64,000 bases of DNA, taken from positions 2,679-66,678 of the forward strand of contig CAWGXL010000008.1 in NCBI GenBank assembly GCA_963826535.1, read 5' to 3'. Made by a program: the position numbers and the translations under genes. The notes beneath the pieces were generated by a model, which did not search any database, had not been told where the DNA came from, and worked only from the letters and a program-made list of their open reading frames with translations. This document shows positions 31,531-64,000 of the stretch, in pieces; position 1 is the first letter of the stretch, and every line of letters begins with the position of its first letter. This DNA is from an uncultured bacterium (GTDB lineage: Bacteria; Patescibacteriota; Microgenomatia; Levybacterales; UBA12049).

Positions 31531-31557
31531 TTGTTTTAGTAAAGTTTTAGTCATTGA
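31531..31557. repeat. second pair of TTTTAGTAA-like repeats overlapping the integrase promoter region
   Basis: ttgttttagtaaagttttagtcattg; a TTG...TAcaTTTG Bacteroidetes-type promoter motif at 31502-31533 is also visible. Confidence 0.35.
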
Positions 31558-32714
31558 CAAAATACACCCTTAAATTACTGCTTTACACCTATCAGGTAAA
31601 CACACAAGGGCTATTCCCTATCTATATAAGAACAACAATAAACCGCAAAACTTCCTATAAAGCTACAGGGCATTTTGTAAGCAAAAAAATGTGGGATGAA
31701 AAGAATAGCCAGGTTAAAGCCGGTCATCCGAATGCTGAGTTAATTAATGCTCACCTTTCATTTACTAAGACAGAATGGGAGAAAAAAATTGTTACTACTC
31801 AACTTAAGGGAACTGATTTAACAGCAGCAGAATTGAAAGAAAGTTTTATAAGTGATAAGCATAATATTTTTCATTATGTTGAGGGATTTATTAAAAGATT
31901 AAAAGGTAAAAAATCTAAAGCCACTTTAGAAAACTATAAAAAACATTTGCTGAAGCTTGAGACTTTTAATAAGAGCCGGGCACTTCAATTTGAAAGTATA
32001 GACGCAAATTTTTTGCATAAGTATGAAACCTGGTTAAGAGAAAACATAAACTTCAGAAAAGCAGATAGTACAAATTATATCCATGCTATTTGGAAAACTT
32101 TTAAGACCTGGTTTAATGCTGCAAAGAAAGAAGGTATAATAAGTAACTACCCTTTTGACCAGTATGAGAATCCTGTTTATGTTTCACCGGATAAGGACTA
32201 TTTAACAAACGAAGAATTAAAATTGTTTGAAGATTTTGCGGATGAATCTTTGGATCTTATTTTAAAAGAGAGTGCAGTTTATTTTTTATTCGGTTGCTAT
32301 TCAGGATTAAGAATTTCAGATTGGTATCAGTTCAAATTTGATAAGCATGTAAAAGGAAATAAAATAAGATTGCGTCCGGCAAAGACTAAACACAAATGGG
32401 TAGAGATGATAATAAGCAAACCTTTGCAAAGAAATCTTTTAAGGATGCAGCAAATACCAATTCAATTAAAGGAGCAGACTATAAATGAAAAACTAAAGAT
32501 CATAGCCGCTAAAATAGGTATCAGCAAGCATTTAACTACGCATTCATCTCGTCACTCGTTCGGGATAACCATTTGTCTTGCTAACGGTCTTTCAAGTGAA
32601 ACAACAGCAGAATTAATGGGAATAACATTAGATACTTTTGTAAAAAATTACTCTCAAATAACTCAATCAAAAATAGATCATGAAACAAGTAAGGCCTGGG
32701 AAAAATTAAATTGA
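31554..32714 (+). CDS. int: tyrosine integrase (site-specific recombinase)
   Basis: N-terminal arm-binding-like LFPIYIRTTINRKTSY, catalytic HSSRHSF and LMGITLDTFVKNY (Tyr); a TTG start is inferred. Confidence 0.75.
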   Translation: MTKYTLKLLLYTYQVNTQGLFPIYIRTTINRKTSYKATGHFVSKKMWDEKNSQVKAGHPNAELINAHLSFTKTEWEKKIVTTQLKGTDLTAAELKESFISDKHNIFHYVEGFIKRLKGKKSKATLENYKKHLLKLETFNKSRALQFESIDANFLHKYETWLRENINFRKADSTNYIHAIWKTFKTWFNAAKKEGIISNYPFDQYENPVYVSPDKDYLTNEELKLFEDFADESLDLILKESAVYFLFGCYSGLRISDWYQFKFDKHVKGNKIRLRPAKTKHKWVEMIISKPLQRNLLRMQQIPIQLKEQTINEKLKIIAAKIGISKHLTTHSSRHSFGITICLANGLSSETTAELMGITLDTFVKNYSQITQSKIDHETSKAWEKLN

Positions 32715-33340
32715 GCTTCTATTACAATAGATAATTCCTTGCTACCTTTGATATAAGTATGCCTACCATTAATTCTTAAATATGATTCCCATACTTTTTT
32801 GTTTTTATTCCAATAAATACCTTTAATCCCACTTCTTCTTTCTGCACATGGCGAAGACCTATCATTAGATAACATTTCTTCCAATTCATCAATACTGTAG
32901 TTTAATTCATTCAATAAAGCATATTCAGATAATTCCTTAGCTTTTTTATTATAGGCGTATGCAGCGGCTATTTCGCTTTTATAAAACCCCAAATCGTGAT
33001 CTTCATGATTTATTCGGCACCTACTATTATACAGCCCTAATTTTTTTTTAAACTGTACACCCTTATAAGTATTGTTTGTGTTTCTTCTTTTGTGTTGATT
33101 ATGTACATTTTGCTCTTTATTTACAATCCTTATATTATATTTTTGATTGTTCAATTTATTATGATCCCTGTGATCTACTAATTGATCCGGCAAAGGCTTT
33201 AAAATCATTCTATGCATCTTTACTCTATCTTCATTTATAGCATATCCATTGGATAAATACCATTTGTGCTTAGATAAATAAGCAAAATCTTCATCATCAA
33301 CTAAAGATGTTTCTCCTTTTGATAGTAATATTATTTTCAT
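32678..33340 (-). CDS. HNH endonuclease with AP2 DNA-binding domains (homing-endonuclease-like)
   Basis: VDHRDHNKLNNQKYNIR (HNH); YKGVQFKKKLGLYNSRCR...EIAAAYAYNKKAKEL and IKGIYWNKNKKVWESY (AP2). Confidence 0.6.
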   Translation of the reverse strand: MKIILLSKGETSLVDDEDFAYLSKHKWYLSNGYAINEDRVKMHRMILKPLPDQLVDHRDHNKLNNQKYNIRIVNKEQNVHNQHKRRNTNNTYKGVQFKKKLGLYNSRCRINHEDHDLGFYKSEIAAAYAYNKKAKELSEYALLNELNYSIDELEEMLSNDRSSPCAERRSGIKGIYWNKNKKVWESYLRINGRHTYIKGSKELSIVIEAQFNFSQALLVS

Positions 33341-38350: not shown

Positions 38351-39232
38351 ATGACAAAAGAATTAACAACACAATCTCAAACGGTAAAGTCTCTCTTTGA
38401 ACGGGAGGACGTAAAAAAGAAGTTCCATGAACTTTTAGGAAAAAGATCAACAAGTTTTATTACAAGTGTCTTACAAATTGCGGTGCAAAATCAACTCCTT
38501 GCAAAAGCCGATCCTGTAAGCATTTATCAGGCCGCAGCCGTAGCAGCTACCCTTGATCTTCCTCTTAACTCTAATCTTGGCTTTGCTTACATAGTACCTT
38601 ATAATGATAAGAACAAAGGACAGGTAGCGCAATTCCAAATGGGGTACAAAGGGTTTATTCAACTGGCACAACGTAGCGGGCAATTTAAAAGCATTTATGC
38701 ATCTCCGATTTATCAGGGTCAAATAGTTTCTGAAAATCCGCTTGAAGGCTATTTGTTTGACTTTACTAAAAAAAGCGATGTGCTTGTCGGGTATGCAGCA
38801 AAATTCAAATTACTTAATGGATATGAAGCCACGCTTTACATGACAGTGGAACAACTTAAAAAACATGGCAACCAATACAGCCAGTCATTTAAAAAAGGCT
38901 TTGGGTTATGGAAAGACAACTTTGATGCCATGGCATCTAAAACAGTTTTAAAACTCCTTCTTTCAAAGTTCGCACCTCTTTCGGTTGATATGCAAAGGGC
39001 AGTTATTACAGACCAGGCTATCATTAACAATGCAGATACAGAAGATGTAACCTACATAGATAATGAACCGGTTATTGTGGATAAGGAAGCCGAGAGAATA
39101 AGCCTACTGATAGGGGATGCTAAAACAATTGACGATTTAATGAAGGTAAAAGAATTTGTACTTCCTGAGCAGGCAGAATTATATGAAACAAAATTTGCAG
39201 AACTGAGCGAAAAGGCGATGGAGGCCGCATAA
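38351..39232 (+). CDS. recT: RecT-family single-strand annealing protein
   Basis: SFITSVLQIAVQNQLLAKADPVSIYQAAAVAATLDLPLN...GFAYIVPY...QFQMGYKGFIQLAQRSGQ matches RecT. Confidence 0.7.
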   Translation: MTKELTTQSQTVKSLFEREDVKKKFHELLGKRSTSFITSVLQIAVQNQLLAKADPVSIYQAAAVAATLDLPLNSNLGFAYIVPYNDKNKGQVAQFQMGYKGFIQLAQRSGQFKSIYASPIYQGQIVSENPLEGYLFDFTKKSDVLVGYAAKFKLLNGYEATLYMTVEQLKKHGNQYSQSFKKGFGLWKDNFDAMASKTVLKLLLSKFAPLSVDMQRAVITDQAIINNADTEDVTYIDNEPVIVDKEAERISLLIGDAKTIDDLMKVKEFVLPEQAELYETKFAELSEKAMEAA

Positions 39233-39234
39233 AT

Positions 39235-40020
39235 ATGGACTTTTCAAAACAATTATTCCGTTGTTCGTCATTAGGGTATCTGATGACCAATCCTATAAGT
39301 AAAGCAGATAAAGAAGCTGGTAATTTATCAGAAGGTGCCAAAACACATTTGATAGATATATATATTCAAAATAAATACAGGCGACAAACCGATATTTCAA
39401 ACAAGTATATCGAAAAGGGTTTAATGGTTGAAGAAGATTCTATTACTCTTTACAGCCGGGTTAAAAAAATATTCTTTAAAAAGAATGTACAGCATCTTTC
39501 AAATGAATTTATAAAAGGTACACCGGATTTATACACCGGACTTGAAATTGAGGCCGCTGATAAGGTAATAGATTTAAAAAGCTCATGGGATATATATACT
39601 TTTTTCAGAGTTCATACTAAAGATATTAATCCTCTTTATTACTGGCAACTACATGGCTATATGGCGCTAACACATGCTGCAAAAGCTTCTTTGTGTTATT
39701 GCCTGATAAATACTCCTGAACCAATTATTCAGGATGAAGAAAGAAAACTATTCTATAGAATGGGGGCAATAGAAAATCCTTTATACGAAGAGGCCTGTAA
39801 AGAACTACGAAAGGCAATGATTTTTGATGATGTGCCTATGAGAGAAAGGATTATAGAGTTTATAGTAGAAAAAAATAAAGAAGATATTGAAAAGCTATAT
39901 GAAAAGATTAAAAAGGCAAGGGCTTATTTAAAAGAATTGGATGAAATAATTAACCCTGATGAAATATCTGTTTTGATTGCAAATCACGAACCTGAATTAT
40001 CGGCAACAATTGTACAATGA
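39235..40020 (+). CDS. YqaJ-like (lambda-exonuclease fold, PD-(D/E)xK) recombination exonuclease
   Basis: GTPDLYTGLEIEAADKVIDLKSS and YYWQLHGYMALT; its position after recT fits the partner exonuclease. Confidence 0.55.
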   Translation: MDFSKQLFRCSSLGYLMTNPISKADKEAGNLSEGAKTHLIDIYIQNKYRRQTDISNKYIEKGLMVEEDSITLYSRVKKIFFKKNVQHLSNEFIKGTPDLYTGLEIEAADKVIDLKSSWDIYTFFRVHTKDINPLYYWQLHGYMALTHAAKASLCYCLINTPEPIIQDEERKLFYRMGAIENPLYEEACKELRKAMIFDDVPMRERIIEFIVEKNKEDIEKLYEKIKKARAYLKELDEIINPDEISVLIANHEPELSATIVQ

Positions 40021-40882: not shown

Positions 40883-41065
40883 ATGGAAAATCTTATAAAG
40901 AAAAAAGTAAAAGTAAAGATTGATATTTCTTATTTCGAAGATCCAAAAAAAATATTTGCGCGCCAGGGAGATAGGGTAAATGTATTTGCAGACTTAGGCC
41001 ATGTAGTTGTAGCAAAAAATGTTTATGGAGAAAAATTTTGTATTGCCAAACATGATATAGAATAA
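40883..41065 (+). CDS. hypothetical small protein
   Basis: ORF. Confidence 0.3.
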   Translation: MENLIKKKVKVKIDISYFEDPKKIFARQGDRVNVFADLGHVVVAKNVYGEKFCIAKHDIE

Positions 41066-41421
41066 TGGAATCACAATACCTCATAGAACGGCGCCTAAGA
41101 ATGTTAGGCATTAAGCAGCCGGAAGAAAAGCGGCCTGTAAAAAAAATAGCCTTCCATTCAAAGAAACGTGAAACTAAACAGAGGGTTTACCGGAAGATAG
41201 TAAAAAGCATGCATGAAGAAAGTGATTTATGTGAAATACATAGCCCTGTATGTACAGGAAGGATGCAGGGTGCAGATCATATCCAGAAAAGAAGTGAACT
41301 TAATTTATTGATAAGGAATAATTTAAAAAGAGCCTGCAATGCATGCCAGGATTATAAAGAAAAATTTCCGGAATGGGCAAAAGAAAACGGTCATTCAATA
41401 AGCAAATTTAACAGAGCATAA
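41065..41421 (+). CDS. small Cys/His-rich protein (possible HNH-like or zinc-binding nuclease)
   Basis: CEIHSPVC...ADHIQKRS...CNACQDY. Confidence 0.3.
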   Translation: MESQYLIERRLRMLGIKQPEEKRPVKKIAFHSKKRETKQRVYRKIVKSMHEESDLCEIHSPVCTGRMQGADHIQKRSELNLLIRNNLKRACNACQDYKEKFPEWAKENGHSISKFNRA

Positions 41422-44123
41422 TGGAATTAACCCACGAAGCATATATAAACTTCCTAAAAAGTAAGGTAAGGCTGGCGCAAAGTACTGGATTTGATATTGA
41501 AATATCAGAAATAAATCCTGCCATAAAACCATTCAACCGATTAATGGTTAAGTGGCTTGTAAAAGGTGGCAGAAGAGCCTGTTTTGCAGCGTTCGGACTT
41601 CATAAAACTGTTACACAACTTGAAACACTCAGATGCATATTAACTAAAACTGGTGGCCGGGGTTTAGTCATAGCTCCACTTGGAGTGCGACAGGAATTTA
41701 AAAGAGATGCTGTTAATATATTAGGTTGGAATGAACCTCCAAAATTTATAAGAAATATTAACGATGCCGGTGATACAGGTATCTATCTTACAAACTATGA
41801 AACTGTAAGAGATGGTAAACTTGACCCAAGATTATTTAATGTGGTATCACTTGATGAAGCATCTGTTTTAAGAGGCCTGGGAGGTTCAAAAACATTCAGG
41901 GAATTTATGCGCCTATTTACAGGTGATGCCGGTCCGCTTGGTGACAGAAGAGGAACGGAATGCGTAAAATATCGTTTTGTTGCTACGGCTTGTCCGAGTC
42001 CCAACGAATACATTGAATTGCTTTCATACGCGGATTTCTTAGGCATCATGGATGTATCCCAGGCTAAGACAAGGTTCTTTAAAAGAGACAGTACACAAGC
42101 TGACAAACTTACACTTCATGCACATAAAGAAGAAGAGTTTTGGTTATGGGTAGGTTCATGGGCTTTATTTGTTACAAAACCTTCAGACTTGACCGGAAAC
42201 CATGAAGATGATATCGGATATAATATGCCACCATTGGATATAAGATGGCATGAATTACCAAGTGACCACAGCAATGCCGGCGCTGAGAAGAATGGACAAT
42301 TTAAAATGTTTAAAGATTCAGCTTTAGGATTAAGTCCTGCTGCAAAAGAGAAAAGAGAAAGCTTGGACGCAAGGATTAATAAAATGATTGAATTGAGACA
42401 AGAAGATATTAGCGCACATAGAATAATTTGGCATGACTTAGAAGATGAGCGTCATTCACTCAAAAAAGTAATTCCTGATATAGTTAATATTTATGGTTCC
42501 CAAGATCTTGATCAACGTGAGCAAGCGATTATTGATTTTTCGGATGGTCTTATCCGGGAGTTTGGAGCAAAACCGCGTATAGCAGGTTCGGGCTGTAATT
42601 TTCAAAGGCATTGTAATTGGGCAATCTATTTAGGTATTGGTTTTAAGTTCAACGACTTTATTCAAAGTATTCACAGACTTCTAAGGTTTCTGCAAACAAA
42701 AACTGTACGCATTGATTTGATCTACACAGAAGCTGAAAGGCAAGTAAGAAAAACACTAGAAAGAAAATGGAAACAACACAATATAATGGTGCAAAAAATG
42801 ACAGAAATAATTAAAGAATATGGTTTATCTGAATCTGCTATGGCTCAGGTATTAACACGGAAAATGGGTGTTGAGCGTGTTGAAATTAAAGGAAATAATT
42901 ATCACCTGGTAAACAACGACGCAATATTAGAAGCTAAAAATTTGGAAGATAACAGCATCGGTTTAATACTCACTTCTATCCCATTTTCTACTCAGTATGA
43001 ATACTCACCTAACTATGCTGATTTCGGCCATTCAGAAAACAATGAAGAGTTTTTTGCACAAATGGATTTTTTAACACCTGAATTATACAGATCACTAAAG
43101 CCTGGCAGGATAGCAGCTATTCATGTTAAAGATAGAATAGTACCAATGGGATTAAGCGGCATGGGTTTTCAAGTTGTTTATCCACTTCATAAACATTGCA
43201 TTGATCATTACACAAAATATGGTTTTGGTTACATAGGAATGAAAACTATCGTTACTGATGTTGTAAGGGAAAATAATCAAACATATCGTTTAGGATGGAC
43301 AGAACAATGCAAGGACGGAACAAAAATGGGAGTAGGTATGCCTGAATACCTGTTACTCTTTAGAAAACCTCCTAGAGATAGAAGTAACGCTTATGCAGAT
43401 GAACCGGTTATAAAAGAGAAAAAATCTAAAGCAAGATGTATGTATTGTTATTCAAGTAGTCTTGTTCAGGATTATTTTGTTGATAACAGATATGTATGTC
43501 CGGTTTGCAAAAATGAACTTAAAGAAGAATTTTTTCATGAAAATAAAAGTTTTGAATATTCTCTTTCCAGGTGGCAAATTGATGCTCATGGTTTTACCAG
43601 ATCTTCCGGCGACAGATATTTGAACCCGGAAGAACTTGCTGTATTAGATCATGATAAAATATTTAAAATATTCAGGGATTATTCACTTAACAATATTTAT
43701 GATTTTGAGCATCATGTTCAAATTGGGGAAGCTATTCAGGCTATTGGGAAACTTCCTACAACATTCATGCTTTTACAGCCTCAAAGTTGGAGCCCTGATG
43801 TATGGACAGATATTACAAGGATGAGGACTTATAACATGACACAGGAACGCAAAGGTAAAGAGATGCATTTATGCCCTATGCAGATTGATCTTGCACGAAG
43901 GGTTATAAAACAACTTTCAATGAAAGGCGAGAAAGTGCTTGACCCATTTGGAGGGTTAATGACCGTACCTGCAGAGGCTGTACATTTGGAACGTTACGGG
44001 ATAGGATTTGAGCTTAGCAAAACGTATTTTTTAGATGGAGCAGTTTATTGTAGGTCGGCTGAAAATAATATTGATATGCCGACTTTATTTGATACAATTA
44101 ATGAAACGGTACCGGCAGCGTGA
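41421..44123 (+). CDS. fusion of an SNF2/DEAD-like helicase N-terminal (RecA-like) domain with a beta-class N6-adenine/N4-cytosine DNA methyltransferase; contains a zinc ribbon
   Basis: FAAFGLHKT (motif I-like), LVIAPLGV...QEF (Ia), VVSLDEASVL (II); then methyltransferase motif IV LILTSIPFSTQY (DPPY-like) followed by motif I DPFGGLMTV; CMYCYSSS...CPVCKNE. Confidence 0.65.
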   Translation: MELTHEAYINFLKSKVRLAQSTGFDIEISEINPAIKPFNRLMVKWLVKGGRRACFAAFGLHKTVTQLETLRCILTKTGGRGLVIAPLGVRQEFKRDAVNILGWNEPPKFIRNINDAGDTGIYLTNYETVRDGKLDPRLFNVVSLDEASVLRGLGGSKTFREFMRLFTGDAGPLGDRRGTECVKYRFVATACPSPNEYIELLSYADFLGIMDVSQAKTRFFKRDSTQADKLTLHAHKEEEFWLWVGSWALFVTKPSDLTGNHEDDIGYNMPPLDIRWHELPSDHSNAGAEKNGQFKMFKDSALGLSPAAKEKRESLDARINKMIELRQEDISAHRIIWHDLEDERHSLKKVIPDIVNIYGSQDLDQREQAIIDFSDGLIREFGAKPRIAGSGCNFQRHCNWAIYLGIGFKFNDFIQSIHRLLRFLQTKTVRIDLIYTEAERQVRKTLERKWKQHNIMVQKMTEIIKEYGLSESAMAQVLTRKMGVERVEIKGNNYHLVNNDAILEAKNLEDNSIGLILTSIPFSTQYEYSPNYADFGHSENNEEFFAQMDFLTPELYRSLKPGRIAAIHVKDRIVPMGLSGMGFQVVYPLHKHCIDHYTKYGFGYIGMKTIVTDVVRENNQTYRLGWTEQCKDGTKMGVGMPEYLLLFRKPPRDRSNAYADEPVIKEKKSKARCMYCYSSSLVQDYFVDNRYVCPVCKNELKEEFFHENKSFEYSLSRWQIDAHGFTRSSGDRYLNPEELAVLDHDKIFKIFRDYSLNNIYDFEHHVQIGEAIQAIGKLPTTFMLLQPQSWSPDVWTDITRMRTYNMTQERKGKEMHLCPMQIDLARRVIKQLSMKGEKVLDPFGGLMTVPAEAVHLERYGIGFELSKTYFLDGAVYCRSAENNIDMPTLFDTINETVPAA

Positions 44124-44341
44124 AAAAGGTTTATACAATAAAGATAACTTCTAATAATTCTCATCCAAACATCTGGTATGCTAAACGGATAGGGCAGGAG
44201 TTTGAAGCCGAATTATCAATGGGAGCAAAAGGTTATGTGGTTTACAGGTTGAAGGGTAATTATATAGTTCACCCGGAAGACTGTATAGTTTTAAATGTCA
44301 AGGAAGAAGAAAAGCATTTTAAAGAACAAAGAGTAGAATAA
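44120..44341 (+). CDS. hypothetical protein
   Basis: ORF coupled to the methyltransferase gene. Confidence 0.3.
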   Translation: MKKVYTIKITSNNSHPNIWYAKRIGQEFEAELSMGAKGYVVYRLKGNYIVHPEDCIVLNVKEEEKHFKEQRVE

Positions 44342-44359
44342 TTTATATATCGTAATAAA

Positions 44360-44716
44360 ATGGGTTATTTAGAAAAACTTAATCAGCCCCTTTGGCAAAA
44401 GAAACGCCTTGAAATATTCCAACGTGATAATTGGAAGTGTACCCAATGCTTTGCGGTTGAAAAAGAATTGCATGTACACCACTTAGATTATATCCATGAT
44501 ATTAAGCCTTGGGAATACCCAAATGATATGCTGATTACCTTATGCAGTGACTGTCATGCAAAAGAAAATGAGCGGCCTAAACATGAAAGCTATTTACTAC
44601 AATCACTAAAGATGAAAGGTTTTTTAGTAAATGATATGCTTATTTTATCCTGCCTTATTGATACCAATGAAAAATTCACCAATTTCTTATTAAAAATTAT
44701 GAGGGCTAATGAGTAA
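44360..44716 (+). CDS. HNH endonuclease
   Basis: WKCTQC...LHVHHLDYIHD...NDMLITLCSDCHAKEN. Confidence 0.55.
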   Translation: MGYLEKLNQPLWQKKRLEIFQRDNWKCTQCFAVEKELHVHHLDYIHDIKPWEYPNDMLITLCSDCHAKENERPKHESYLLQSLKMKGFLVNDMLILSCLIDTNEKFTNFLLKIMRANE

Positions 44717-45326
44717 AAGAATGACTGATACTGATAAATGGAAAAAACCATTTTTTAGATCATTGCCGAAGGAGTATAAATTATTTTGGTTTTATATTTT
44801 AGATGACTGCGATCATGCAGGCTTATGGCACGTAGATATGGAAGTGGCTGATATAAGATTAGGTCTACGATTATCATCCCAAAAAGCACAAGAGTTATTC
44901 GCCGATAAAATAATTGTGCTTGATAATGGAACCAAGTGGTTCATTCCTGATTTTATTACATTCCAGTACGGTGAATTTAACGAAGCTAATAAGATGTATA
45001 AATCAATAATGCCTATTCTTTTAAAGTATAATCTTATCCCCCATATATCCCCCATTTATGGGGTTAAAGTAAAAGTAAAAGAAACAGTACAAGTAAAAGA
45101 AGAAGAAAGGAAGCAAGAATTTTTAAAAAATGAGATTTGGAAACAAGAATTCTGTATGGCAAAAAACATTTCAATGTTTGAATTAGAGGCGCTTCAAAAG
45201 TCTTTTATAAAAGACGCAGAGCTAAAAGGAGAATTTGTAGATAATTACTATAGATATTTTACAAACTCATTCAATAAGGGATCAAATAATATTATTCCTA
45301 AGCCTAAAAAAGAATTTGTGATATGA
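44709..45326 (+). CDS. hypothetical replication-associated protein (possible replisome organiser)
   Basis: WKKPFFRSLPKEYKLFWFYILDDCDHAGLW N-terminal pattern; located upstream of the primase-helicase. Confidence 0.35.
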   Translation: MSKRMTDTDKWKKPFFRSLPKEYKLFWFYILDDCDHAGLWHVDMEVADIRLGLRLSSQKAQELFADKIIVLDNGTKWFIPDFITFQYGEFNEANKMYKSIMPILLKYNLIPHISPIYGVKVKVKETVQVKEEERKQEFLKNEIWKQEFCMAKNISMFELEALQKSFIKDAELKGEFVDNYYRYFTNSFNKGSNNIIPKPKKEFVI

Positions 45327-46999
45327 ATTTAAATTGGCTTAAATACGGCATAGATATTTCTAAACAAAGAGGCGGTAAAATGCTTTGTCCTAACTGTAGC
45401 CATACCAGGAAAAACAAAAATGATCATTGCCTTAGTGTTGATGTTGTAACCGGGCTTTATAACTGCCACAACAACAACTGTGGATTTAAGGGAAGCGTAG
45501 TTGAGTATAGGCCAAAAAAAGAATTTGTTAAACCTATACCGAGATTGGAAGTTTTAAGAGCCAAAACGGTGGAATGGTTTGAGAAAATAAGGCGCATATC
45601 TAACAACACTTTGCTAAGATTTAAAATTACTGAGATTAAAGAATGGATTTGCTTTAATTATTTCAGGGATGAACAATTGGTAAATATCAAATTCAGGGAT
45701 ACAGCAACAAAATCCTTTCGCATGACGAAGGACGCAGAGCTAATTTTTTACAACCTGGATGCGATAAAAGATGAAAATGAATGTGTAATTGTTGAGGGTG
45801 AAATTGATTGTCTTACCTGCCATGAATGCGGAATTTATAATTCTGTATCTGTACCAAATGGCGCAAGCAAAGGAAATCAAAAGCTTGAATATTTGGATAA
45901 TTGTTGGGAATGGTTTGAGAATAAAACAAAAGTGGTTTTAGCTGTTGATAGCGATGAAGCTGGCGTTATGTTACGGGATGAATTGGCGCGGAGATTAGGG
46001 AAGGAAAAATGTTTTACGGTTGAATATCCGCAAGGATGCAAAGATGTGAATGAAGTGCTTATAAGCCATGGTAAAGAAGCAGTAATTCAAATCATAGCCG
46101 CAGCAAAAGAAATACCACTTGAAGGAATAAAAACAATGGATGAAATGTATCAACAGATTTGTGATTGGTACGAACATGGTTATCCAAAAGGAGCAAGGGC
46201 CCGTATAAGTGGGTTCGACGAATTACTAACTTTTGTCCCGGGCCAACTAACTATGATAACAGGGATTCCGGGCCATGGTAAAGACGAGTTTGCAAATCTT
46301 ATTATGACCTCCCTTGCTAAGTATGAAGATTGGAGTTGGGGGATATGTGCCTTTGAAGAAAGCCCGGAAGAAACGGTTACAAAACTCATTGAAAAACTTA
46401 CAGGAAAATCTTTTGATTTTAGGATTGATAAATCACAAAGAGTTAATGAAAGTGAGTATGAAACTGGGTTAGGACTTGTTGATAAATATTTTCACTTCAT
46501 AAAAACAGAAGATATTGAAACCGATCTTGAAGGTATTTTAATTAAAGCAGAACAAATGGTAAAACGTTTTGGGATAAGAGGTTTTTGCCTTAATCCCTGG
46601 AATTGGGTTGAGCATTTTAGAGAAGCATACATAAGCGAAACAGAATACGTAAGTCATGCGCTCACTAAGGTTATTTTATTTTCACGAAGGTTTAAGGTGC
46701 ATTTTTTTTTAATGGCACATCCTACAAAAATGAGTAAGAAAGATGGGAAAAAATATGATGTACCAACTCTTTATTCAATTAACGGATCAGCAAATTTTTT
46801 TAATAAGACTCATAACGGAATAACAGTTTATAGAGATGCTGATACGGTTGATGTTCATGTTCAGAAAGTAAAGCAAAGCTGGTTAGGTAATACTGGTTTA
46901 TGCCAATTTAGGTATAACACTTATACTCGGCAATATGCTGCATTATCTGAGTTTAAATTAAATGGTTTTGTACCTATTCAAATAGATAGAACATTTTGA
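45323..46999 (+). CDS. bifunctional DNA primase / P-loop helicase
   Basis: Zinc ribbon CPNCSH...C...YNCHNNNC; TOPRIM VIVEGEIDCLT and VLAVDSDEAG; P-loop ITGIPGHGKDEF. Confidence 0.65.
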   Translation: MNLNWLKYGIDISKQRGGKMLCPNCSHTRKNKNDHCLSVDVVTGLYNCHNNNCGFKGSVVEYRPKKEFVKPIPRLEVLRAKTVEWFEKIRRISNNTLLRFKITEIKEWICFNYFRDEQLVNIKFRDTATKSFRMTKDAELIFYNLDAIKDENECVIVEGEIDCLTCHECGIYNSVSVPNGASKGNQKLEYLDNCWEWFENKTKVVLAVDSDEAGVMLRDELARRLGKEKCFTVEYPQGCKDVNEVLISHGKEAVIQIIAAAKEIPLEGIKTMDEMYQQICDWYEHGYPKGARARISGFDELLTFVPGQLTMITGIPGHGKDEFANLIMTSLAKYEDWSWGICAFEESPEETVTKLIEKLTGKSFDFRIDKSQRVNESEYETGLGLVDKYFHFIKTEDIETDLEGILIKAEQMVKRFGIRGFCLNPWNWVEHFREAYISETEYVSHALTKVILFSRRFKVHFFLMAHPTKMSKKDGKKYDVPTLYSINGSANFFNKTHNGITVYRDADTVDVHVQKVKQSWLGNTGLCQFRYNTYTRQYAALSEFKLNGFVPIQIDRTF

Positions 47000-47101
47000 A
47001 ACACACAAAAACAATATTAAAGCTTATGCTGGTTTTAATTCTGATAGCAGTGATTTATTTGTTTATTATCTGGCTGGCTTTAAATTCTAATAAAGGTTTT
47101 T

Positions 47102-47605
47102 ATGAGTAAAAATTGGACTTTAGGCGATATAGAAAAACTTTCAGCAAGAGGTTTTAGGGTTAATGTTAAGTCGGTTCTTCATGTTTCAGATCTCAACGAT
47201 TTTAAGACTAAAAAAATAATACCTCTACAAAAATTATTAGATAAGGCTCAAAAAGAATTTAATAAGTTTATTCGTAACAGGGATGCTCAAAAAGGTTGTA
47301 TTTCATGTCAGTCATATAACGTACAGCAAGCGTCACATTTTTTCAGTGTAGGGCAATTTTCAGCATTAAGATTCCACGAAGATAATGTGGCGGGTAGTTG
47401 TCTTAAATGTAACTATTTTCTTTCAGGTAATTTATTAGCATATAGAGAAAGTTTGTTAGTTAGAATAGGCGAACAAAGATTAAATGATCTTGAATTATCA
47501 GTAAAAATAAATAGGGTTAAAAAGTGGTCACGTTTCGAATTAGAATTAATTTATAAAATGTACAAAGAAAAAAATAATATAAGTATAAAAAGTTATGAAT
47601 CTTAA
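47102..47605 (+). CDS. NinG/Rap-like recombination protein
   Basis: CISCQSY...ASHFFSVG...CLKCNYF Cys/His pattern. Confidence 0.45.
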   Translation: MSKNWTLGDIEKLSARGFRVNVKSVLHVSDLNDFKTKKIIPLQKLLDKAQKEFNKFIRNRDAQKGCISCQSYNVQQASHFFSVGQFSALRFHEDNVAGSCLKCNYFLSGNLLAYRESLLVRIGEQRLNDLELSVKINRVKKWSRFELELIYKMYKEKNNISIKSYES

Positions 47606-49878: not shown

Positions 49879-50136
49879 ATGGAAGAAATAATGGGAGAAG
49901 AGAAAGACGGTAAAACTGCAGCATTCGCAATCCTGGCTGCATTACGGGCGAAAGCAGCCAAAGGTGACGTAAGGGCAGCAGAGATGCTAATGAACAGGGG
50001 GTATGGTCTTCCTAAGCAACATATAGAACATTCAGGCAGCATAGAAACACCAATAATATTTAAACTTGATGACAAGTTCAGAGAAGATAGTCTTAACGAC
50101 CCCGGTGTTCCAAAAAAACTTGGCGGCATACCTTAA
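49879..50136 (+). CDS. terS: terminase small subunit candidate (C-terminal part)
   Basis: In-frame region 49786-49878 upstream encodes NDPRINKEGRPKLP (GRPK motif typical of TerS N-termini); located immediately before TerL. Confidence 0.4.
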   Translation: MEEIMGEEKDGKTAAFAILAALRAKAAKGDVRAAEMLMNRGYGLPKQHIEHSGSIETPIIFKLDDKFREDSLNDPGVPKKLGGIP

Positions 50137-51244
50137 TCCGAAATATAATGTTATTTGTGACGAAGGTGGTAGTAGATCAGGTAAGACATTTGGGATAATC
50201 CAACTTTGTGTTGGCATAGCCGGCAATGAACCAAACAAAAGAATATCAATAGTGTCTCATTCATTACCTCATGTTAAAAGGGGGGTATTAAGAGATTTTA
50301 AATTGATCATGCAGGAAATTGGTTGGTGGTATGAAGAACAATGGAGTGCGACAAACTTTATTTATACTTTTAAGAATAGCAGTTATATAGAATTATTTGG
50401 TTTAGAGGATGAATCTAAAGCAAGAGGACCAGGTAGGGATATTCTATTTGTAAATGAAGCTAACCTGATAACTAAAACTTTATTTGATCAGTTGGCAATG
50501 AGGACAACAGGTAAAATCTTTTTAGATTGGAATCCTGCTGACTTTAATTCATGGTGTTATGAGTTGGCCGATGATCCAAAGAATAAAAGAATACATTCTA
50601 CCTACAAAGACAACATTCACAATTTAAGCCAATCGCAAATAGATTACATAGAAGCCTATAGAAATTTACCTGATGACTTCCTTTGGAAAGTTTACGGGTT
50701 AGGAGAAAGAGGAGCAGCCAAAGAACTAATTTACACTACCTGGAAATATTATACCGATGATCCGCTTAATGGAGATGTTTTTTACGGTTTAGACTTTGGA
50801 TATACTAATCCTTCGGCAATGGTAAAAGTAACGCATTATGAAGGCGCTAATTACGTGCAGGAGGTATTATATCAGTCTTCATTAACCGTACCGGAAATGA
50901 TTAACCGAATTAAAAGTTTAGGTATAGGCAAAAGTATAATTTATGCTGATTGTGCAGAGCCTAAAACTATTGATGAGATTTATAAAGCCGGGATAAATAT
51001 TAAACCAAGTGATAAAGATGTGTGGGCAGGTATTGTAGGAGTAAAATCATATCCACTTTATATAAAGAAAGGTTCAGATAATTTAATAAGAGAATTGCAG
51101 GGTTACAAGTGGAAGAAAGATAAAAACGATAATATAACTGAAGAGCCGGTTAAAGCTGATGACCATTTAATTGATGCGTTACGTTATGCAATATTTACAA
51201 ACCTTGTAACACCAAAGCTGGTTTATTCAGATGCAAGATATTAA
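50066..51244 (+). CDS. terL: terminase large subunit (PBSX/Terminase_3-like)
   Basis: Walker A-like VICDEGGSRSGKTFGII; FVNEAN; the start is possibly a TTG near 50119. Confidence 0.7.
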   Translation: MMTSSEKIVLTTPVFQKNLAAYLNPKYNVICDEGGSRSGKTFGIIQLCVGIAGNEPNKRISIVSHSLPHVKRGVLRDFKLIMQEIGWWYEEQWSATNFIYTFKNSSYIELFGLEDESKARGPGRDILFVNEANLITKTLFDQLAMRTTGKIFLDWNPADFNSWCYELADDPKNKRIHSTYKDNIHNLSQSQIDYIEAYRNLPDDFLWKVYGLGERGAAKELIYTTWKYYTDDPLNGDVFYGLDFGYTNPSAMVKVTHYEGANYVQEVLYQSSLTVPEMINRIKSLGIGKSIIYADCAEPKTIDEIYKAGINIKPSDKDVWAGIVGVKSYPLYIKKGSDNLIRELQGYKWKKDKNDNITEEPVKADDHLIDALRYAIFTNLVTPKLVYSDARY

Positions 51245-51577: not shown

Positions 51578-53062
51578 ATGGGTGTATTTGACTTCTTTAA
51601 AAAAGATAAGGTTATAAAAGACTTGTCTGCCCAGGTTAAAGCATTACAACAATATAATACCAATAATTTTCTAAGATTTAATAATCTTAACCGCAACATT
51701 GCTCTATTCCCTGAATGGGATATACATACTAACTCTGAGCGTTACGCCACTACTGATGATATTTATTCTATTGTTCGTATGCTTGCCACTACTGCAGCAA
51801 TGATACCTATTTATGCTTACCAGGTAGTTGATGAGGTGGCACAAAAGAAACTTAACAGAATAAAGCAGCCACATAATAAACCATATGAAGTAAAAGCTCT
51901 GCAGGTAAAAGCATTAGAAGAACTACCAGGTGATGACAGGGTTGAAATGCTAATGGAGAACCCTTGCGAATATAAAAGCAAGTTTGAGTTTTATGAGGCT
52001 ATTTATACCTTTCTTTTTTTATATGGTGAAGCATTTATATTAAAAGAAAGGCCGGTTGTAGGTGTTAACTCAGGGCTTACAGTATCTCTCCACCCTTTAT
52101 ATCCCCAGAACATTATTTTGAAAGTAAGTGGTGATTTACCACGTAGAATAACAGGCTATGACTATAAAGTAAATGGAGTTACTATTTATGAGAATTTACC
52201 TGTAGAAGATATAATACACCTGAAGTATTTTAATCCAACAATGGATTATTTGGGTACCGAATTAAGAGGACTTTCACCTTTACAGGTTTTAGCTAAAAGA
52301 TTAGGTAGAATGGATGCCAACCTTAATACATCTGTTGCACAGATGCAAAATGGAGGTGTGCAAAAAATTGTGTGGGATGAAAACGATACCGGTGTTCCAT
52401 TTACTCAGGATGGTAAAGAGGTAACAATTGCAGGAGCAAGGAAAGATAATTTTTATAGGTTCCTGAAGAACCCTGGTAATTATGGGGCTCCATTCTTTGC
52501 AGCTGGCAAAATGGGTGTTATCGATATTGGCAGCACACTTGATGAAATGGGGATTTTAGAAATAGGTAACATAGATTTTAAGAAGTTATGTAATGCTTAC
52601 GGTACTTCTGATATACTTTTTAATTCAGATGTTGCCAGTACTGAGAGCAATGTAACTGTAATGGAGAAAAGGACTTATACCAATACAGTTTTACCAAATG
52701 TTTACAGGGTAAGGGATGCCTTAAAGGCCGGATTGTTGGAAGACTTTGAAAAAGGAAGAAGATACGTTAAGATAGATGAAAACGGTAATGAAAATCAGGT
52801 AGTAATAGAAGGGGATGGTGTTAAGCGGGATATACGGGAAGATATTTCAGAGATACATTCTTTGCAGGAAGATATGGGTAAGATGGTAGCATGGATGCAA
52901 CAGGCCTGGTGGATTTTACCTAATGAAAAAAGGTTAATGATGAAATATGATGAAATAGATAATCCATTGTTTAATGAACCGTTAATTCCTACAGGTATGC
53001 AAACTACAGAAGATTTTCAGAGCGTAGAGCCCTTAGATATTGTTACTGAGGAAGGAAATTAG
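51578..53062 (+). CDS. portal protein
   Basis: 494-aa ORF between the terminase and the Mu-F-like gene, about the size of an HK97/SPP1-type portal. Confidence 0.55.
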   Translation: MGVFDFFKKDKVIKDLSAQVKALQQYNTNNFLRFNNLNRNIALFPEWDIHTNSERYATTDDIYSIVRMLATTAAMIPIYAYQVVDEVAQKKLNRIKQPHNKPYEVKALQVKALEELPGDDRVEMLMENPCEYKSKFEFYEAIYTFLFLYGEAFILKERPVVGVNSGLTVSLHPLYPQNIILKVSGDLPRRITGYDYKVNGVTIYENLPVEDIIHLKYFNPTMDYLGTELRGLSPLQVLAKRLGRMDANLNTSVAQMQNGGVQKIVWDENDTGVPFTQDGKEVTIAGARKDNFYRFLKNPGNYGAPFFAAGKMGVIDIGSTLDEMGILEIGNIDFKKLCNAYGTSDILFNSDVASTESNVTVMEKRTYTNTVLPNVYRVRDALKAGLLEDFEKGRRYVKIDENGNENQVVIEGDGVKRDIREDISEIHSLQEDMGKMVAWMQQAWWILPNEKRLMMKYDEIDNPLFNEPLIPTGMQTTEDFQSVEPLDIVTEEGN

Positions 53063-56420: not shown

Positions 56421-56789
56421 TAAAGGTTTTTCGTTATCCATTAGATTGTTTCAAGTTGGTAGAATAGTATCCTCTTGTAATACCATATTTAAGAAATTCT
56501 TTCGTAGTTAGATTCCAATTTTCCTTTTGGTAGTTATAAGATAATTATCACAACCTTCAATCATTTTCATTTTTATGAATTTCCATAAAGATATAATTAA
56601 ATTTTAATTACCTACCTAATATTGTTAGTGAATTTTTAACTAAAGATGTTGGTAGGAAGAAAAAGGTTAAAAATGGATACGAAGTAAAAATCATGAATGT
56701 TAAATCAAAGAAGATAAAGAAAAAGAAAGATGGAAAGGAAATCTATAAACTTTGAATTAAAGGACATTGACAAAGGCAAACGTATGGCA

Positions 56790-58159
56790 GTGATCGCCGG
56801 CTCGGTGGGCGCCTCGGTGGTCGGTTCGGTTGTCGGTTCCGTGGTCGGCGGCGTCGTGGCCGGCCTGGTCGTGGCAGGCGCGGAGGTCGGCGGCCGAGCC
56901 GTCGGCGTGCGGCTGGGCTGCAGCGACTGGCCGCTCGGCCGGGCGGGCTCGGTGTTCTCGTCCGACGAGTCCTGCAGGCCGGGCACACGCCGGGCGCCGA
57001 GCTGTCGGTGACCCGCGCCGACGGCGTGGTGACCGGTTGCTCCGCGGTGCCGCTCCGGTCCGGCTGGAAGAATAGCGCAGGGCCAGCAGGCCGCGGCCAG
57101 ACCGAGGAAGATCACGGTCAGCAGCACGGCCAGCTCGGCGCCGGTGCGCTTACGCTGGCCCGGCGCCTGCGGCACGTACGGCAGGTCGTGCGGCGCCGGT
57201 GCGGGTCCAGGTCGGCGGCGGCCGGGCCCAGTGGCATGGTGAGCGCGGTGCCGGTCATCGCCGCGCTGGTCAGCGCGGTGCCGGTCTGCGTGGTGCCGGT
57301 GCTGGTCAGCGACTGGTAGTCCATCGGCGTGCTGGCGGCGAGCGCGGCCTCGGCGAACTCGGCGGCGCTGGCGAAGCGGTCCTCCGGGTGTTTCGCCATG
57401 GCGCGGCTGATCAGCTCGCGGACCGCCACCGGCACCTCGGCGGGCAGCGGCTCCGGATCCTCGTCCAGGTGGCGCAGCGCCACCGGAGGGCGGTGTCACC
57501 GTCGAACGGGCGGATGCCCGGAGAGGCAGTGGTATGCCACCGCGCCCAGCGCGTAGATGTCCGTCGCCGGCGTGACGTTGCCCTTGGCCACCTGCTCCGG
57601 TGCCATGTAGAGGGCGGTGCCGACGATCGAGTTGACCCCGGTCAGGCTGGTCACCGCGTTGGACCGGGCCATGCCGAAGTCGACGAGGATGGACCGCGCC
57701 GGTCGGGCTTCACGATCAGGTTGCCGGGCTTGACGTCGCGGTGCACGGTGCCGGTCTGGTGCGCGGCGTGCAGCGCGTCCGCGGTCTGGGACACGATCGA
57801 CATGGTCTCCGCGACGGTCAGCCGGCCGACCTCCTTGAGGCGGGTGGACAGCGGCTCGCCCTCCACGTAGCGCCATCACCAGGTAGGCGCACTGATCCTC
57901 GTCGGCCGAGTCGCGGCGCTCGGCGTAGTCGTAGACCTCGACCACGCCCGGGTGCCGGAACGCGGCCATCATCCGGGCCTCCGCCGTAGAACCGGGCGGC
58001 GAACTCCGGGTCGCGCATCATCGACGGACGCAGCACCTTGACCGCGACGACGCGGTTCAGCACGACGTCGGTGCCGCGCCACACGTCACCCATGCCGCCC
58101 GTGGCAATGCGCTCGTCCAACCGGTAACGGTTGTCGAGGAGATGACCGGCATCCAGCAC
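56790..58159 (-). pseudogene. PknB-like Ser/Thr protein kinase (kinase, TM and Pro/Thr-rich tail), broken by frameshifts and truncated at the GC junction
   Basis: Across at least four frames: GGMGDVWRG...VAVKVL, HRDVKPGN, DFGMARS...APE; TM LAVLLTVIFLGLAAA; PTTEPTTEPTTEAPTEP runs into the AT-rich DNA with no stop. Confidence 0.55.
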
Positions 58160-58229
58160 CAGCGGACCTTATCTGCTCGGGGGACCTCGGGGGAAAGCCG
58201 AGTGACGCTCACTGTATCGAGCGGGCCGC

Positions 58230-58809
58230 TCAGCGCCGGATCAGCGGGGGCACCCGGCGACCCTGCGCGGAGTCGGTGATCAGCTGTTGCAGGCGGCGTT
58301 CCCGGGTGTCCGCGCGCTTGCCGCTGACCACCCAATGAGCTGCCGCTTTGCGGTACGACGGCGACTGCGCGGAGTACCACTGGAAGGCCTTGGTGTCCAC
58401 TTGGAGGAGGGCCAGTTTGGCGTCGTCAGGCCGGGCGTCATCGGGCTGCTCGTACGAGTAGGTCGCCACCCGATCGGGTCGCCGGGTCTCGTACGCGTGC
58501 AGCCCGGCCGGCCGCATCAGCCCCTGTTCGGTGAGGCGCGCCACAGCCGCGATGTTCACCACGCTCCACACGCTGCCCTTGCGGCGCGGCGTGAAGCGCA
58601 CCTGGTGCCGGTCCTCGTCGATCGCGCCGGCCGATGCTGTCGATCCAGCCGAAGCACAGCGCCTGCTCGATCGCCTCGGTGTGCGAGATGCCCGGCTTGC
58701 CGGTGTGCTTCTTCCAGTAGCCGACGAACAATTCCGGCGCTTCGGCATGATTTTCCTCGTACCAGGCGCGCAGCTCGGCGACTGTGGTGAAGAACACGGC
58801 ATCGGTCAT
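58230..58809 (-). CDS. YdeI/OmpD-associated family protein, one frameshift
   Basis: VGYWKKHTGKPGISHTEAIEQALCFGWIDS then (+1 base) IDEDRHQVRFTPRRKGSVWS...KRADTRERRLQQLI. Confidence 0.5.
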
Positions 58810-58879
58810 GACGGCAGAGTAGGGCCGCCGGGCGGCAAAGGGTCCCGGCCGGCGGCCACTACCGCTCCTCGACCGGTAG

Positions 58880-59280
58880 TCAGCTGTCGTACCTGGGGGT
58901 GACCACGACCGCGGTCTCGGCCAGCTCGAGCTCCTCGGCCTCGGCCTGACGCTCGAGCGCGGCCCGCGCGGCGGTCGCCGCGGCCAGCCGAGCGCGGCGC
59001 CGAGCAGGCCGGCGCCGATGATCAGGCCCCAGGGCAGGCCCGGGCTTGCGTACCGGCCAGTGCGTTCGCGGCCGCGTTGGCCCGCGCCCACGCCTCGTCG
59101 GCGACCGAACCGACCGTGCTGCCCGCCTGGCCCGCCAGCTTCGAGCTCTTCTTGCTCGGCCCGGTGGCGAACTTCGAGCTCTTCTTGGAGCCTGCGGCCC
59201 GCCAGTTGCGACGGCCGTGAGCTGGTGACGTCGACCGTGTGCTTGCCGGCCTCCCGGGCGGTGTCACCCGCCGCGGTCAT
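58880..59280 (-). CDS. small Ala/Lys-rich membrane protein, frameshifted
   Basis: KKSSKFATGPSKKSSKLAG..., TM GLPWGLIIGAGLLGAALGW, and tail ...ERQAEAEELELAETAVVVTPRYDS spread over two or three frames. Confidence 0.25.
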
Positions 59281-59687
59281 GGCGGACGACAGGTAGTCCC
59301 ACGCCTGGGCGGCCGTCCGCTCGGCTTTGTTCTTCCTGGGCGAACATGTCTTGTACCTCCTGCGTTTCGCCGGTGCAACCCTAACCCTGCCCAGGCACCG
59401 GGCGGCAAACGTCCGGCCGGGCGGCCGGGGTCGCGTGTGGACAGCGTCACACCCGGATAAAGCGGTGGACGCCGTCGGTAGGCTGGTGCCGATCCAAGCC
59501 GCGGTACACAGGCGGTTGCCAGGTTCGGTGCATAGGCTGGCGGAGTTTCACCGAACCCCACGGGGGTAGCAGCCATCGGCACTCCCGGGCGGACGGCGAT
59601 CACCGGGTCACGGCGTCACCACGCCAAGGCCCGCCGGCCGCGACAGGAACAGACGGCGGGGCGTCCCGGGCGGGTGGAGGTAATGGC

Positions 59688-60078
59688 GTGAGCCTGTCGA
59701 TAACGACGTCGACGCTGGCCAGTGGCGCGGTGGAGGTCTTGCCGGAGGCGAGATCGACGTCGAGACGCCTATTCGATCAAGGACGCGGTGGCGGCTCAGC
59801 TCGCCGACGACCGTCCCGAGCGCATCGAGCTCAACATGCAGTACGTGAGATTCATCGACTCCGTGGGCATCAGCGCCCTCGTGAGTGCGCACCAGCTCGC
59901 CGGGATCAGCGGCGTCAAGCTGGTGGTCACGCGTCCCAGCCGGTTCGCGCACCGGCAACTCTGGGTGACCGGCCTGCTCGGTCTCTTCGGCAACCCGGAC
60001 CCGTGCCCGGAGTGTACGGATCCTCGCGGAGCAGCCCGCGGTGTCCGGCGCATGACCGCGAGTGATTCTCACCTTTAG
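59688..60078 (+). CDS. STAS-domain anti-sigma-factor antagonist, two frameshifts
   Basis: LAGGEIDVETP (third frame) and ...IELNMQYVRFIDSVGISALVSAHQLAGISGVKLVVTRP. Confidence 0.45.
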
Positions 60079-60130
60079 CCTTCCTGTGGTGACTTGTTAC
60101 CCGGTGTCCGATACGGAATAGTGCCCCATC

Positions 60131-61868: not shown

Positions 61869-61874
61869 CGGCCG

Positions 61875-63575: not shown

Positions 63576-64000
63576 GTGGTCCTTCCCGATCGTGGCGACA
63601 ACTCGACGCGGCCGGTGACCTCCGCGATGGCCTCGGCGCTGTCCGGTACCCAGCCCGTGCCGGGTCACGTTGAGCGCGCCGGCGGCGGCGCCGGTGCGGA
63701 CGGCCTCGCGCAGGTCACCGCCCTGGGCCAGCATGGCCGCCACGCCCGCGGTCATCGAGTCGCCGGCGCCGTGGTGGTCGGCCTCCTCCAGCCGGGGCGG
63801 GTCGACGACCAACACCTCGCCGTCGAGCAGGGCCAGCGCCGGCTGCTCGGCCCGGCTGATCACCACGGCGCCTCGGCCCCGCGTCGTGCAGCTCGTGCAG
63901 CGCCGCGATCAGGTCGGCCTCGTCGTCGGCGCCCGGCCGTCCCGGAGCAGCTCCTCGTCGCTGACCTTGAGGAACTCCACCCCGCCGTCGAGGACCGCGT
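63572..64000 (-). CDS. PfkB-family carbohydrate kinase, C-terminal part (start beyond window end)
   Basis: VVDPP...HHGAGDSMTAGVAAMLAQGGDLREAVRTGAAAGALNVTRHG (GAGD box); its stop overlaps the surE ATG (ATGA). Confidence 0.45.

Follow-up and report, generated by a model that had tools for sequence, protein, structure and literature searches.

The window analysed here, a 64,000-nucleotide stretch of contig CAWGXL010000008.1, contains at 41421-44123 (+) a single uninterrupted open reading frame (ORF) of 900 codons, in which a SNF2-type ATPase and a beta-class DNA methyltransferase are joined in one chain. An earlier note on this DNA had read the gene as a phage-borne fusion of a helicase-like ATPase with a beta-class amino-methyltransferase, and this reading holds for the single product of 900 amino acids (aa). 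At its ATG the ORF overlaps with the stop codon of the preceding one (TAATG), and at its TGA with the GTG of the following one (GTGA); the fusion gene is therefore part of a tightly packed co-directional operon. The PHROG16 family, named 'DNA helicase', matches the fusion protein almost end to end (aa 40-895, E=3e-108). The ORF comprises the following parts, in which AdoMet stands for S-adenosylmethionine:

41538..42005 (+): SNF2 ATPase lobe 1, aa 40-195, from motif alignment, profile, AlphaFold2 model and fold matches
41592-41609 (+): motif I FGLHKT, aa 58-63
41673-41687 (+): motif Ia APLGV, aa 85-89
41850-41864 (+): motif II LDEAS, aa 144-148
41985-42005 (+): motif III TACPSPN, aa 189-195
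42006..42410 (+): helical insertion between the lobes, aa 196-330, from helices of the AlphaFold2 model; inside the 1z63, Ino80 and ISW1 alignments
42411..42740 (+): SNF2 ATPase lobe 2, aa 331-440, from Helicase_C (353-423, E=0.06), alignment, profile and fold
42423-42440 (+): motif IV IIWHDL, aa 335-340
42582-42605 (+): motif V AGSGCNFQ, aa 388-395
42663-42695 (+): motif VI QSIHRLLRFLQ, aa 415-425
42741..42875 (+): long helical linker from motor to methylase, aa 441-485, with model helices at 437-467 and 471-481
42876..43370 (+): methyltransferase N-terminal part, aa 486-650; motif IV located, motifs IV-VIII expected there by the beta-class order
42972-42989 (+): catalytic motif IV TSIPFS, aa 518-523
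43371..43556 (+): variable loop and insertion hotspot with CxxC...CxxC insert, aa 651-712
43437-43448 and 43497-43508 (+): cysteine pairs C673-x2-C676 and C693-x2-C696
43557..43820 (+): conserved helical region, aa 713-800, located where beta-class enzymes have their target-recognition domain
43821..44075 (+): methyltransferase C-terminal part, aa 801-885
43860-43883 (+): motif X EMHLCPMQ
43941-43964 (+): AdoMet motif I DPFGGLMT, aa 841-848

The motor and the methyltransferase

In an alignment with close and distant relatives the superfamily 2 (SF2)/SNF2 motifs I, Ia, II, III, IV, V and VI are all present, in order and within the same ORF. The motifs I, Ia and II (with DEAS) that the earlier note had recognized in the N-terminal helicase lobe were located as FGLHKT, APLGV and LDEAS. 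Its description of the motor as a half-helicase of about 300 aa without motifs IV-VI did not hold, however: motifs III, IV, V and VI were found as well, and the module spans about 440 aa. A missed frameshift with a complete helicase in a separate gene is not involved; the complete motor lies inside the one ORF. A profile built from the family alignment matched the Sulfolobus SWI2/SNF2 core SsoRad54 (1z63) in one stretch that covers both lobes (profile positions 22-442, E=2e-15), and it also matched many eukaryotic remodeller motors. The AlphaFold2 model of the fusion protein has a mean predicted local distance difference test (pLDDT) score of 72.8 and a predicted template modelling (pTM) score of 0.63, with most of both lobes scoring above 80. 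Helices across aa 197-326 of the model, between motif III and motif IV, correspond to a SWI2/SNF2-type helical insertion. The top matches of a Foldseek search were all SNF2 motors, with template modelling (TM) scores, normalised to the targets of about 440-455 residues, of 0.69 for Ino80 and 0.68 for ISW1.

Helicase hidden Markov models, which the earlier note had named as a check, gave a divided answer. For the window protein neither SNF2-rel_dom nor ResIII of Pfam reported a match, and only Helicase_C appeared below threshold (residues 353-423, E=0.06, 14 bits against a cutoff of 23.5). For this one sequence the failure of helicase models, which the earlier note would have taken as a refutation, thus formally applies. 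The aligned homologues, however, do reach these models: SNF2-rel_dom in 3 of 10 (best 4.9e-6), Helicase_C in 4 of 10 (best 3.3e-8) and ResIII in 2 of 10. Since they stand in the same alignment, we take the miss on the window protein to reflect divergence rather than absence of the domain. In Mycobacterium phage Emma the same motor module forms a separate gene of 429 aa (gp68, annotated as DNA helicase), followed by a methylase of 316 aa (gp69). Such separate but adjacent helicase and methylase genes in some phages show a lasting functional partnership. Motif alignment, 1z63 profile match, fold search and these split-gene homologues together led to the rejection of the half-helicase. As judged from alignment and model, the motor is a complete SWI2/SNF2-family module (aa ~40-440) and a predicted translocase on double-stranded DNA.

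For the second half, the Pfam model N6_N4_Mtase (PF01555) matched aa 515-870 with 50.6 bits against a cutoff of 26.7 (E=3.3e-13), and 'MTase_II' models of PADLOC match it too. The best solved relative is TTHA0409 of Thermus thermophilus (2zie), with E=1.5e-11 for the single sequence and 8e-25 with a profile; it aligns in two blocks, one around motif IV and one around motifs X and I. Motif IV (TSIPFS) is N-terminal to the AdoMet motif I (DPFGGLMT) with a conserved helical region between them, which is the permutation of the beta class. The assignment of the earlier note, an amino-methyltransferase with SIPF before DPFGG, is confirmed by the well-scoring model and the 2zie alignment. No nuclease domain was found in the fusion protein by Pfam, NCBIfam, PHROG or PADLOC.

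Among 60 close relatives the residues for ATP hydrolysis (K62, T63, D145, E146, Q415, R419 and R422) and those for methyl transfer and AdoMet binding (S519, P521, F522, D841, F843 and G845, also T848) are invariant or nearly so. This conservation in both halves is evidence that motor and methylase would both be functional. Motif IV of the S-x-P-F type leans towards N4-cytosine, and for the window protein, too, we lean towards N4-cytosine as the putative modified base.

At other positions the window protein does not follow the canonical consensus GxGK(T/S), RxGQ, (D/N/S)PP(Y/F) and FxGxG. In its clade the Walker A motif reads G-L-H-K-T in 118 of 120 members and the AdoMet loop G-(L/I)-(M/F)-T in about 108 of 120; motif IV is S-(I/V)-P-F in every long-form member seen. 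One could suspect from the change of GxG to Gx(M/F) in these ~108 of 120 close relatives, and of SPPF to S(I/V)PF in all the long-form members, that the methylase of the window clade has lost or changed its chemistry and serves as a DNA-binding sensor or anchor, or that it uses another substrate or cofactor. We consider this quite improbable: glycine, methionine, phenylalanine and alanine vary freely among otherwise near-identical proteins, the canonical GxG of the AdoMet loop recurs inside the long form, and D841, F843, G845, T848, S519, P521 and F522 are invariant around the altered positions. Canonical GLGKT, RFGQ, SPPF and G-I-G are found in more distant members, the last two also in the split and short forms. 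The variants are freely combined from taxon to taxon (G/H/Q in Walker A, G/L/Q/M in motif VI and G/M/F/A in the AdoMet loop), as surveyed with crude regular expressions, such that some of the motif VI calls may come from neighbouring SNF2 genes. This free mixing led us to reject a joint loss of function at the four unusual positions, and we read the unusual residues as permissive positions rather than as inactivation. In the (D/N/S)PP(Y/F) motif the first proline contacts the target amino group through its backbone, and M.PvuII is likewise without the last glycine of motif I.

Between the methylase halves lie ~150 residues, a variable loop (651-712) followed by a helical region (713-800) that is conserved like the catalytic parts: the Pseudomonas phage protein is 62% identical there and the Mycobacterium phage protein 52%. 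The helical region is kept in the long form of the family and is largely absent from the short and split forms. The loop after PV-K-K, in turn, is a hotspot for insertions. Of 114 scoreable relatives 78 have no insert there, ~20-25 have an unrelated insert of ~25 aa that reads 'PLQ..DG..', and 6 have CxxC...CxxC of divergent sequence. The ribbon of the earlier note is present in the window protein as the cysteine pairs C673/C676 and C693/C696, but with 6 of 114 relatives it is not a feature of the family, and the closest homologue (P0002, 79-82% identical) is without it. The insert is thus a lineage-specific decoration outside the family core. The zinc ribbon may have been acquired more than once in the family.

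Phage family and gene neighbourhood

The low-GC (guanine-cytosine) part of the window, 56.8 kb, is a temperate phage whose gene order is circularly permuted in the contig. Phage genes and the nearest neighbours of the fusion gene are:

31554-32714: tyrosine integrase
32678-33340 (-): third HNH-type endonuclease ORF
38351-40020: RecT and exonuclease
41065..41421 (+): HNH-like ORF, 118 aa, upstream of the fusion gene (PHROG333, E=6.5e-5)
44360..44716 (+): HNH endonuclease, 118 aa, downstream of the fusion gene (PHROG119, E=8.5e-17)
45323-47605: primase-helicase and NinG
50066-51244: large terminase
51578-53062: portal

A megablast search of 36-56 kb and 56.8-64 kb against 50,697 phage records found nothing related to the phage at the nucleotide level. 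In a search of one genome per species, Bacteroidota carry the closest copies of the fusion protein (64-71% identity), which suggests a Bacteroidota host for the window phage. At about 56,790 the GC content jumps from ~34% to 70-76% within a few bases. The high-GC part (56780-64000) encodes cellular-type proteins, namely a Ser/Thr protein kinase, a PIG-L deacetylase and PfkB/SurE, and gave no phage match. The junction is located inside the phage structural region, far from the integrase, and has the look of a chimeric assembly or an artificial join, not of an integration site.

The window gene belongs to a known, very widespread, highly conserved and already annotated phage family. A tblastn search recovered the architecture from 314 phage records; in 289 the homologue is full-length, covering at least 80% of the query. 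The closest homologue from a phage genome is the full-length gp57 of Pseudanabaena phage Pan5 (72% identical), followed by ~20 Pseudomonas phages with 61-62% identity (including phi297, YMC/01/01/P52 and PA8), Paracoccus and Rhizobium phages with 56-58%, and Arthrobacter and Mycobacterium phages with 46-48%. Annotations vary between "DNA helicase/methylase", "SNF2 family helicase", "DNA methylase N-4/N-6", "restriction endonuclease" and hypothetical protein. A large protein database holds at least 8000 clusters, the best 120 matches being 67-82% identical, and an exhaustive search of 50% representatives gave 799 clusters at E<1e-30. As prophages, copies are spread over at least seven bacterial phyla, with identities of 48-72%. 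With one genome taken per species, full-length copies were obtained from Bacteroidota, Alpha-, Beta- and Gammaproteobacteria, Bacillota, Spirochaetota, Chlorobiota, Acidobacteriota and a lineage of the candidate phyla radiation (CPR). Only 9 of 72,556 plasmids matched; set against the 314 phage records, this shows that the family belongs to phages rather than to conjugative elements.

For the window gene itself little is at stake, as it is one more copy of a common phage protein and the half-helicase is not there. The family, however, is among the most conserved phage-borne proteins in our analysis, with 48-72% identity from actinophages to cyanophages. A motor of the chromatin-remodeller type is here combined with a DNA methylase, and inteins and homing endonucleases have repeatedly settled in its members, which makes the family a worthwhile experimental target. 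Inteins of the Hint and LAGLIDADG type were found in three representatives (P0138, P0151 and P0157), in helicase and methylase halves, and in Mycobacterium phages Rita and LastJedi (H41, H47) the match falls into two pieces spanning ~3.5 kb, consistent with such insertions. When longer family members were checked for informative extra domains, inteins and LAGLIDADG were all that appeared, and the N-terminal extensions had no Pfam match. A helicase followed by a methylase has already been described for Pacc40 gp60 and for the related Tiff81 and Sashimi (PMC11855218), and phage methylases of this general type have been discussed as orphan anti-restriction enzymes that host inteins or homing endonucleases (PMC11855218, PMC9957025).

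Two HNH ORFs bracket the fusion gene. The upstream one is probably a free-standing homing-type endonuclease; HNH genes are also found upstream of the Emma homologue and, by report, in Tiff81 and Sashimi (PMC11855218). No orthology was detected between the upstream HNH-like ORF of the window and the upstream genes of Emma, Tiff81 and Charlie, on which grounds a conserved HNH partner was rejected. Such an arrangement is consistent with free-standing homing endonucleases that have a highly conserved gene as their target. Similarly, the small downstream ORF at 44120-44341 has no similarity to the equivalent ORF of another locus (L007).

The neighbourhood was further characterized by a census of ±3 kb around 80 genomic copies (L011-L090), in which the recurrent neighbours were:

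23/80 loci (29%): C5 cytosine methylase, ~600-750 aa, median gap 28 nt
9/80 loci: VRR-NUC
8/80 loci: beta sliding clamp
7/80 loci: ParB-N/MutS_I protein
6/80 loci: separate canonical SNF2 helicase, directly upstream, median gap 8 nt
6/80 loci: ResIII helicase
5/80 loci: PAPS reductase

A universal partner gene was absent from the 80 loci, and because of this the fusion protein looks autonomous. The C5 cytosine methylase, which adjoins the fusion gene also in Pan5, YMC P52 and one more locus (L008), supports a role in DNA modification; in the window phage no such gene is found at this position. Together with the ParB-domain proteins and PAPS reductase its recurrence suggests a DNA-modification island. 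As a separate observation, the Paraflavitalea prophage L009, with a 70% identical copy, carries a reverse transcriptase (RVT_1, 13143-14171) 1.6 kb downstream and a second SNF2 helicase 7 kb downstream.

Given this setting, the protein could be part of a prophage-encoded defence or restriction-like system of the DISARM, Type III or Type ISP kind, with a nuclease provided by the flanking HNH proteins. Pairs of an SNF2 protein and a methylase do occur in DISARM, PADLOC returned a weak DrmD match (E=5e-5), and HNH genes lie on both sides of the window gene as well as upstream in Emma and, by report, Tiff81 and Sashimi. The DrmD match, however, is confined to the generic helicase C-lobe, with 12.8 bits against the NCBIfam cutoff of 610. 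DrmA/B/C, PLD, Mrr and PD-(D/E)xK domains are absent, and so are defence partner genes. The upstream HNH proteins are non-orthologous between phages, and no nuclease family is seen in more than 9 of the 80 neighbourhoods. Furthermore, the gene belongs to the early lytic operon, with apparent translational coupling to replication genes. A defence system is thus very improbable, and membership in one was rejected, as PADLOC and NCBIfam gave generic matches only.

The same neighbourhood raises the question of a replication or recombination remodeller, in which the motor would act on forks or recombination intermediates and the methylase would assist by DNA binding, base flipping or marking rather than counter restriction. 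The gene is part of a module of RecT, exonuclease, primase/helicase and NinG, and its relatives have RecT, DnaB, VRR_NUC or a beta clamp nearby. Conservation across phyla is very high and includes the region resembling a target-recognition domain (TRD); such even conservation would also fit a housekeeping role in DNA metabolism. Members of the family hold inteins and homing endonucleases, which favour important conserved genes. On the other hand, a separate canonical SNF2 or ResIII helicase adjoins the fusion gene at some loci, and a canonical SNF2 next door at 6 of the 80 indicates that the fusion motor is not simply the replication SNF2 of the phage. The catalytic motif residues of the methylase are under strong purifying selection, and the gene found most often next to the fusion encodes another DNA methylase and not a replication protein. 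An argument against an essential replication role, by analogy only, comes from a related methylase pham of actinophages, which may not be of this family and whose occurrence within phage clusters is patchy (PMC9957025). Taken together we regard a remodeller as rather unlikely.

Proposed role of the fusion protein

With moderate confidence we take the protein to be one autonomous orphan methylase, which would be moved along the phage DNA by its own translocase and would counter host restriction. The earlier note had likewise proposed an orphan, self-protecting phage methylase, and a phage-borne fusion of an SNF2 motor with a beta-class methylase without cognate nuclease makes this the most reasonable reading. 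In the mechanism that we envisage, the fusion gene would be expressed from the early replication and recombination operon of the phage. The SWI2/SNF2 translocase (aa ~40-440), predicted to be joined by a helical linker to the methyltransferase (N6-adenine/N4-cytosine type, aa ~486-885), would use ATP to carry the tethered methylase along the phage DNA, such that sites could be modified quickly and processively. The replicating and the packaged phage genome would in this way be shielded from host restriction enzymes. It is established that SNF2 enzymes translocate on duplex DNA without unwinding it (PMC5512222), and both the view of related phage methylases as orphan anti-restriction enzymes and the coupling of SNF2 motors to methylases are found in previous work (PMC9957025, PMC5512222).

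Several points weigh against this reading. The window clade departs from usually invariant residues in both halves: GLHKT instead of GLGKT and RFLQ instead of RFGQ in the motor, SIPF instead of SPPF in motif IV and G-L-M instead of G-x-G in the AdoMet loop, so that activity cannot be assumed. The AlphaFold2 model is only of moderate quality and poor at aa 610-640 and 720-820. The neighbours of the fusion gene are genes of replication and recombination. Across phyla the putative target-recognition region matches the catalytic cores in conservation, which is unusual for arms-race methylases. Finally, literature searches for experimental work on the family gave no relevant match, and no methylome, ATPase or restriction-protection data were found.

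The even conservation of the recognition region among phages with hosts in at least seven phyla suggests that specificity may be shared and possibly relaxed. The protein could then be a horizontally shared, ATP-driven and processive methylase acting genome-wide with relaxed or universal specificity, possibly producing N4-methylcytosine (m4C). A further point behind this idea is that the family tolerates non-canonical residues at the ATP and AdoMet sites (GLHKT, G-L-M, S-I-P-F). We consider it unlikely, though worth keeping in mind: if true, such an enzyme would be mechanistically unlike site-specific orphan methylases, would have arisen independently of DarB, and could be used as a tool for DNA footprinting or labelling.

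Comparison with known systems

The actinophage 'DNA helicase/methylase' proteins (Pacc40 gp60, Tiff81 gp71 and Charlie gp56; PHROG 16) are collinear homologues of the window protein with 46-48% identity over 98-100% of the length. The Tiff81 protein is 48% identical over 98%; the gp71 used here is gp76 in the paper (PMC11855218). Like the window protein, they have S-I-P-F, the same order of domains and a place in the replication module. Unlike them, the window protein falls into a clade centred on Bacteroidota and cyanophages (GLHKT, RFLQ, G-L-M) and has the zinc-ribbon insert, whereas inteins or hidden homing endonucleases are frequent in the actinophage members. Pan5 gp57 and the proteins of phi297, YMC/01/01/P52 and PA8 have the same full-length architecture but, in contrast to the window gene, adjoin a C5 cytosine methylase.

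With SNF2 motors (1z63, Ino80, ISW1) the window protein has two RecA lobes, SNF2-type motifs and helical insertions in common. Identity to them is 13-18%, and the window motor is without accessory remodeller domains and is fused to a methylase. The beta-class enzymes (TTHA0409/2zie, M.MboIIA, M.RsrI, CcrM, M.PvuII and the N4-cytosine methyltransferases 8s9m/n) belong to the same PF01555 fold family and have the same permutation; the window protein differs by an insertion of ~150 aa, by SIPF instead of SPPY/DPPY and by G-L-M instead of G-S-G in motif I.

Type ISP enzymes (LlaGI/LlaBIII) combine an N-terminal Mrr/PD-(D/E)xK nuclease, an SF2 helicase, a gamma-class methylase and a TRD. The window protein has no nuclease domain and its methylase is beta-class, not gamma-class, so the suggestion of the earlier note that it might be type-ISP-like was given up. 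DISARM consists of DrmD (SNF2), DrmMI and DrmA/B/C, its DrmD-type helicase being flanked by DrmA (a DUF1998 helicase), DrmB and DrmC/E, whereas the neighbours in the window are RecT, exonuclease, HNH, primase-helicase and NinG. Type ISP, Type III and DISARM were excluded as families on the lack of a nuclease domain, the weak C-lobe matches to DrmD and the absence of their partner genes nearby.

The DNA methylase-helicase dyad of polyvalent proteins, a methylase with a SWI2/SNF2 translocase, has been proposed to act against restriction (Iyer et al. 2017, PMC5512222). In P1 DarB, as in the window protein, a SWI2/SNF2 domain and a DNA methylase are found in one polypeptide of a mobile element. 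This invites the idea of a DarB-type protein that is packaged into the virion, injected with the DNA and methylates in cis, which we regard as extremely improbable. BLASTP of the window protein against DarB detected no similarity (E=1.4). The 2255-aa, virion-packaged DarB is laid out as LPD36, a gamma-class NPP(Y/F) adenine methylase and then SNF2 (by Pfam N6_Mtase/Eco57I at aa 145-290 and SNF2 from aa 849), whereas the 900-aa window protein has SNF2 first, a beta-class methylase second and no LPD36. The window gene is located in a replication module, not beside head genes or in a MuF/polyvalent protein context, and its family is hardly ever met on plasmids and conjugative elements, a common location of the DarB dyad. 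Homology to DarB was rejected on the direct BLASTP and Pfam comparison, and with it the degenerate DarB-like enzyme considered in the earlier note. DarB may nevertheless work similarly to the window protein, and from their sequences we conclude that DarB and the window family are analogous, independently assembled fusions.

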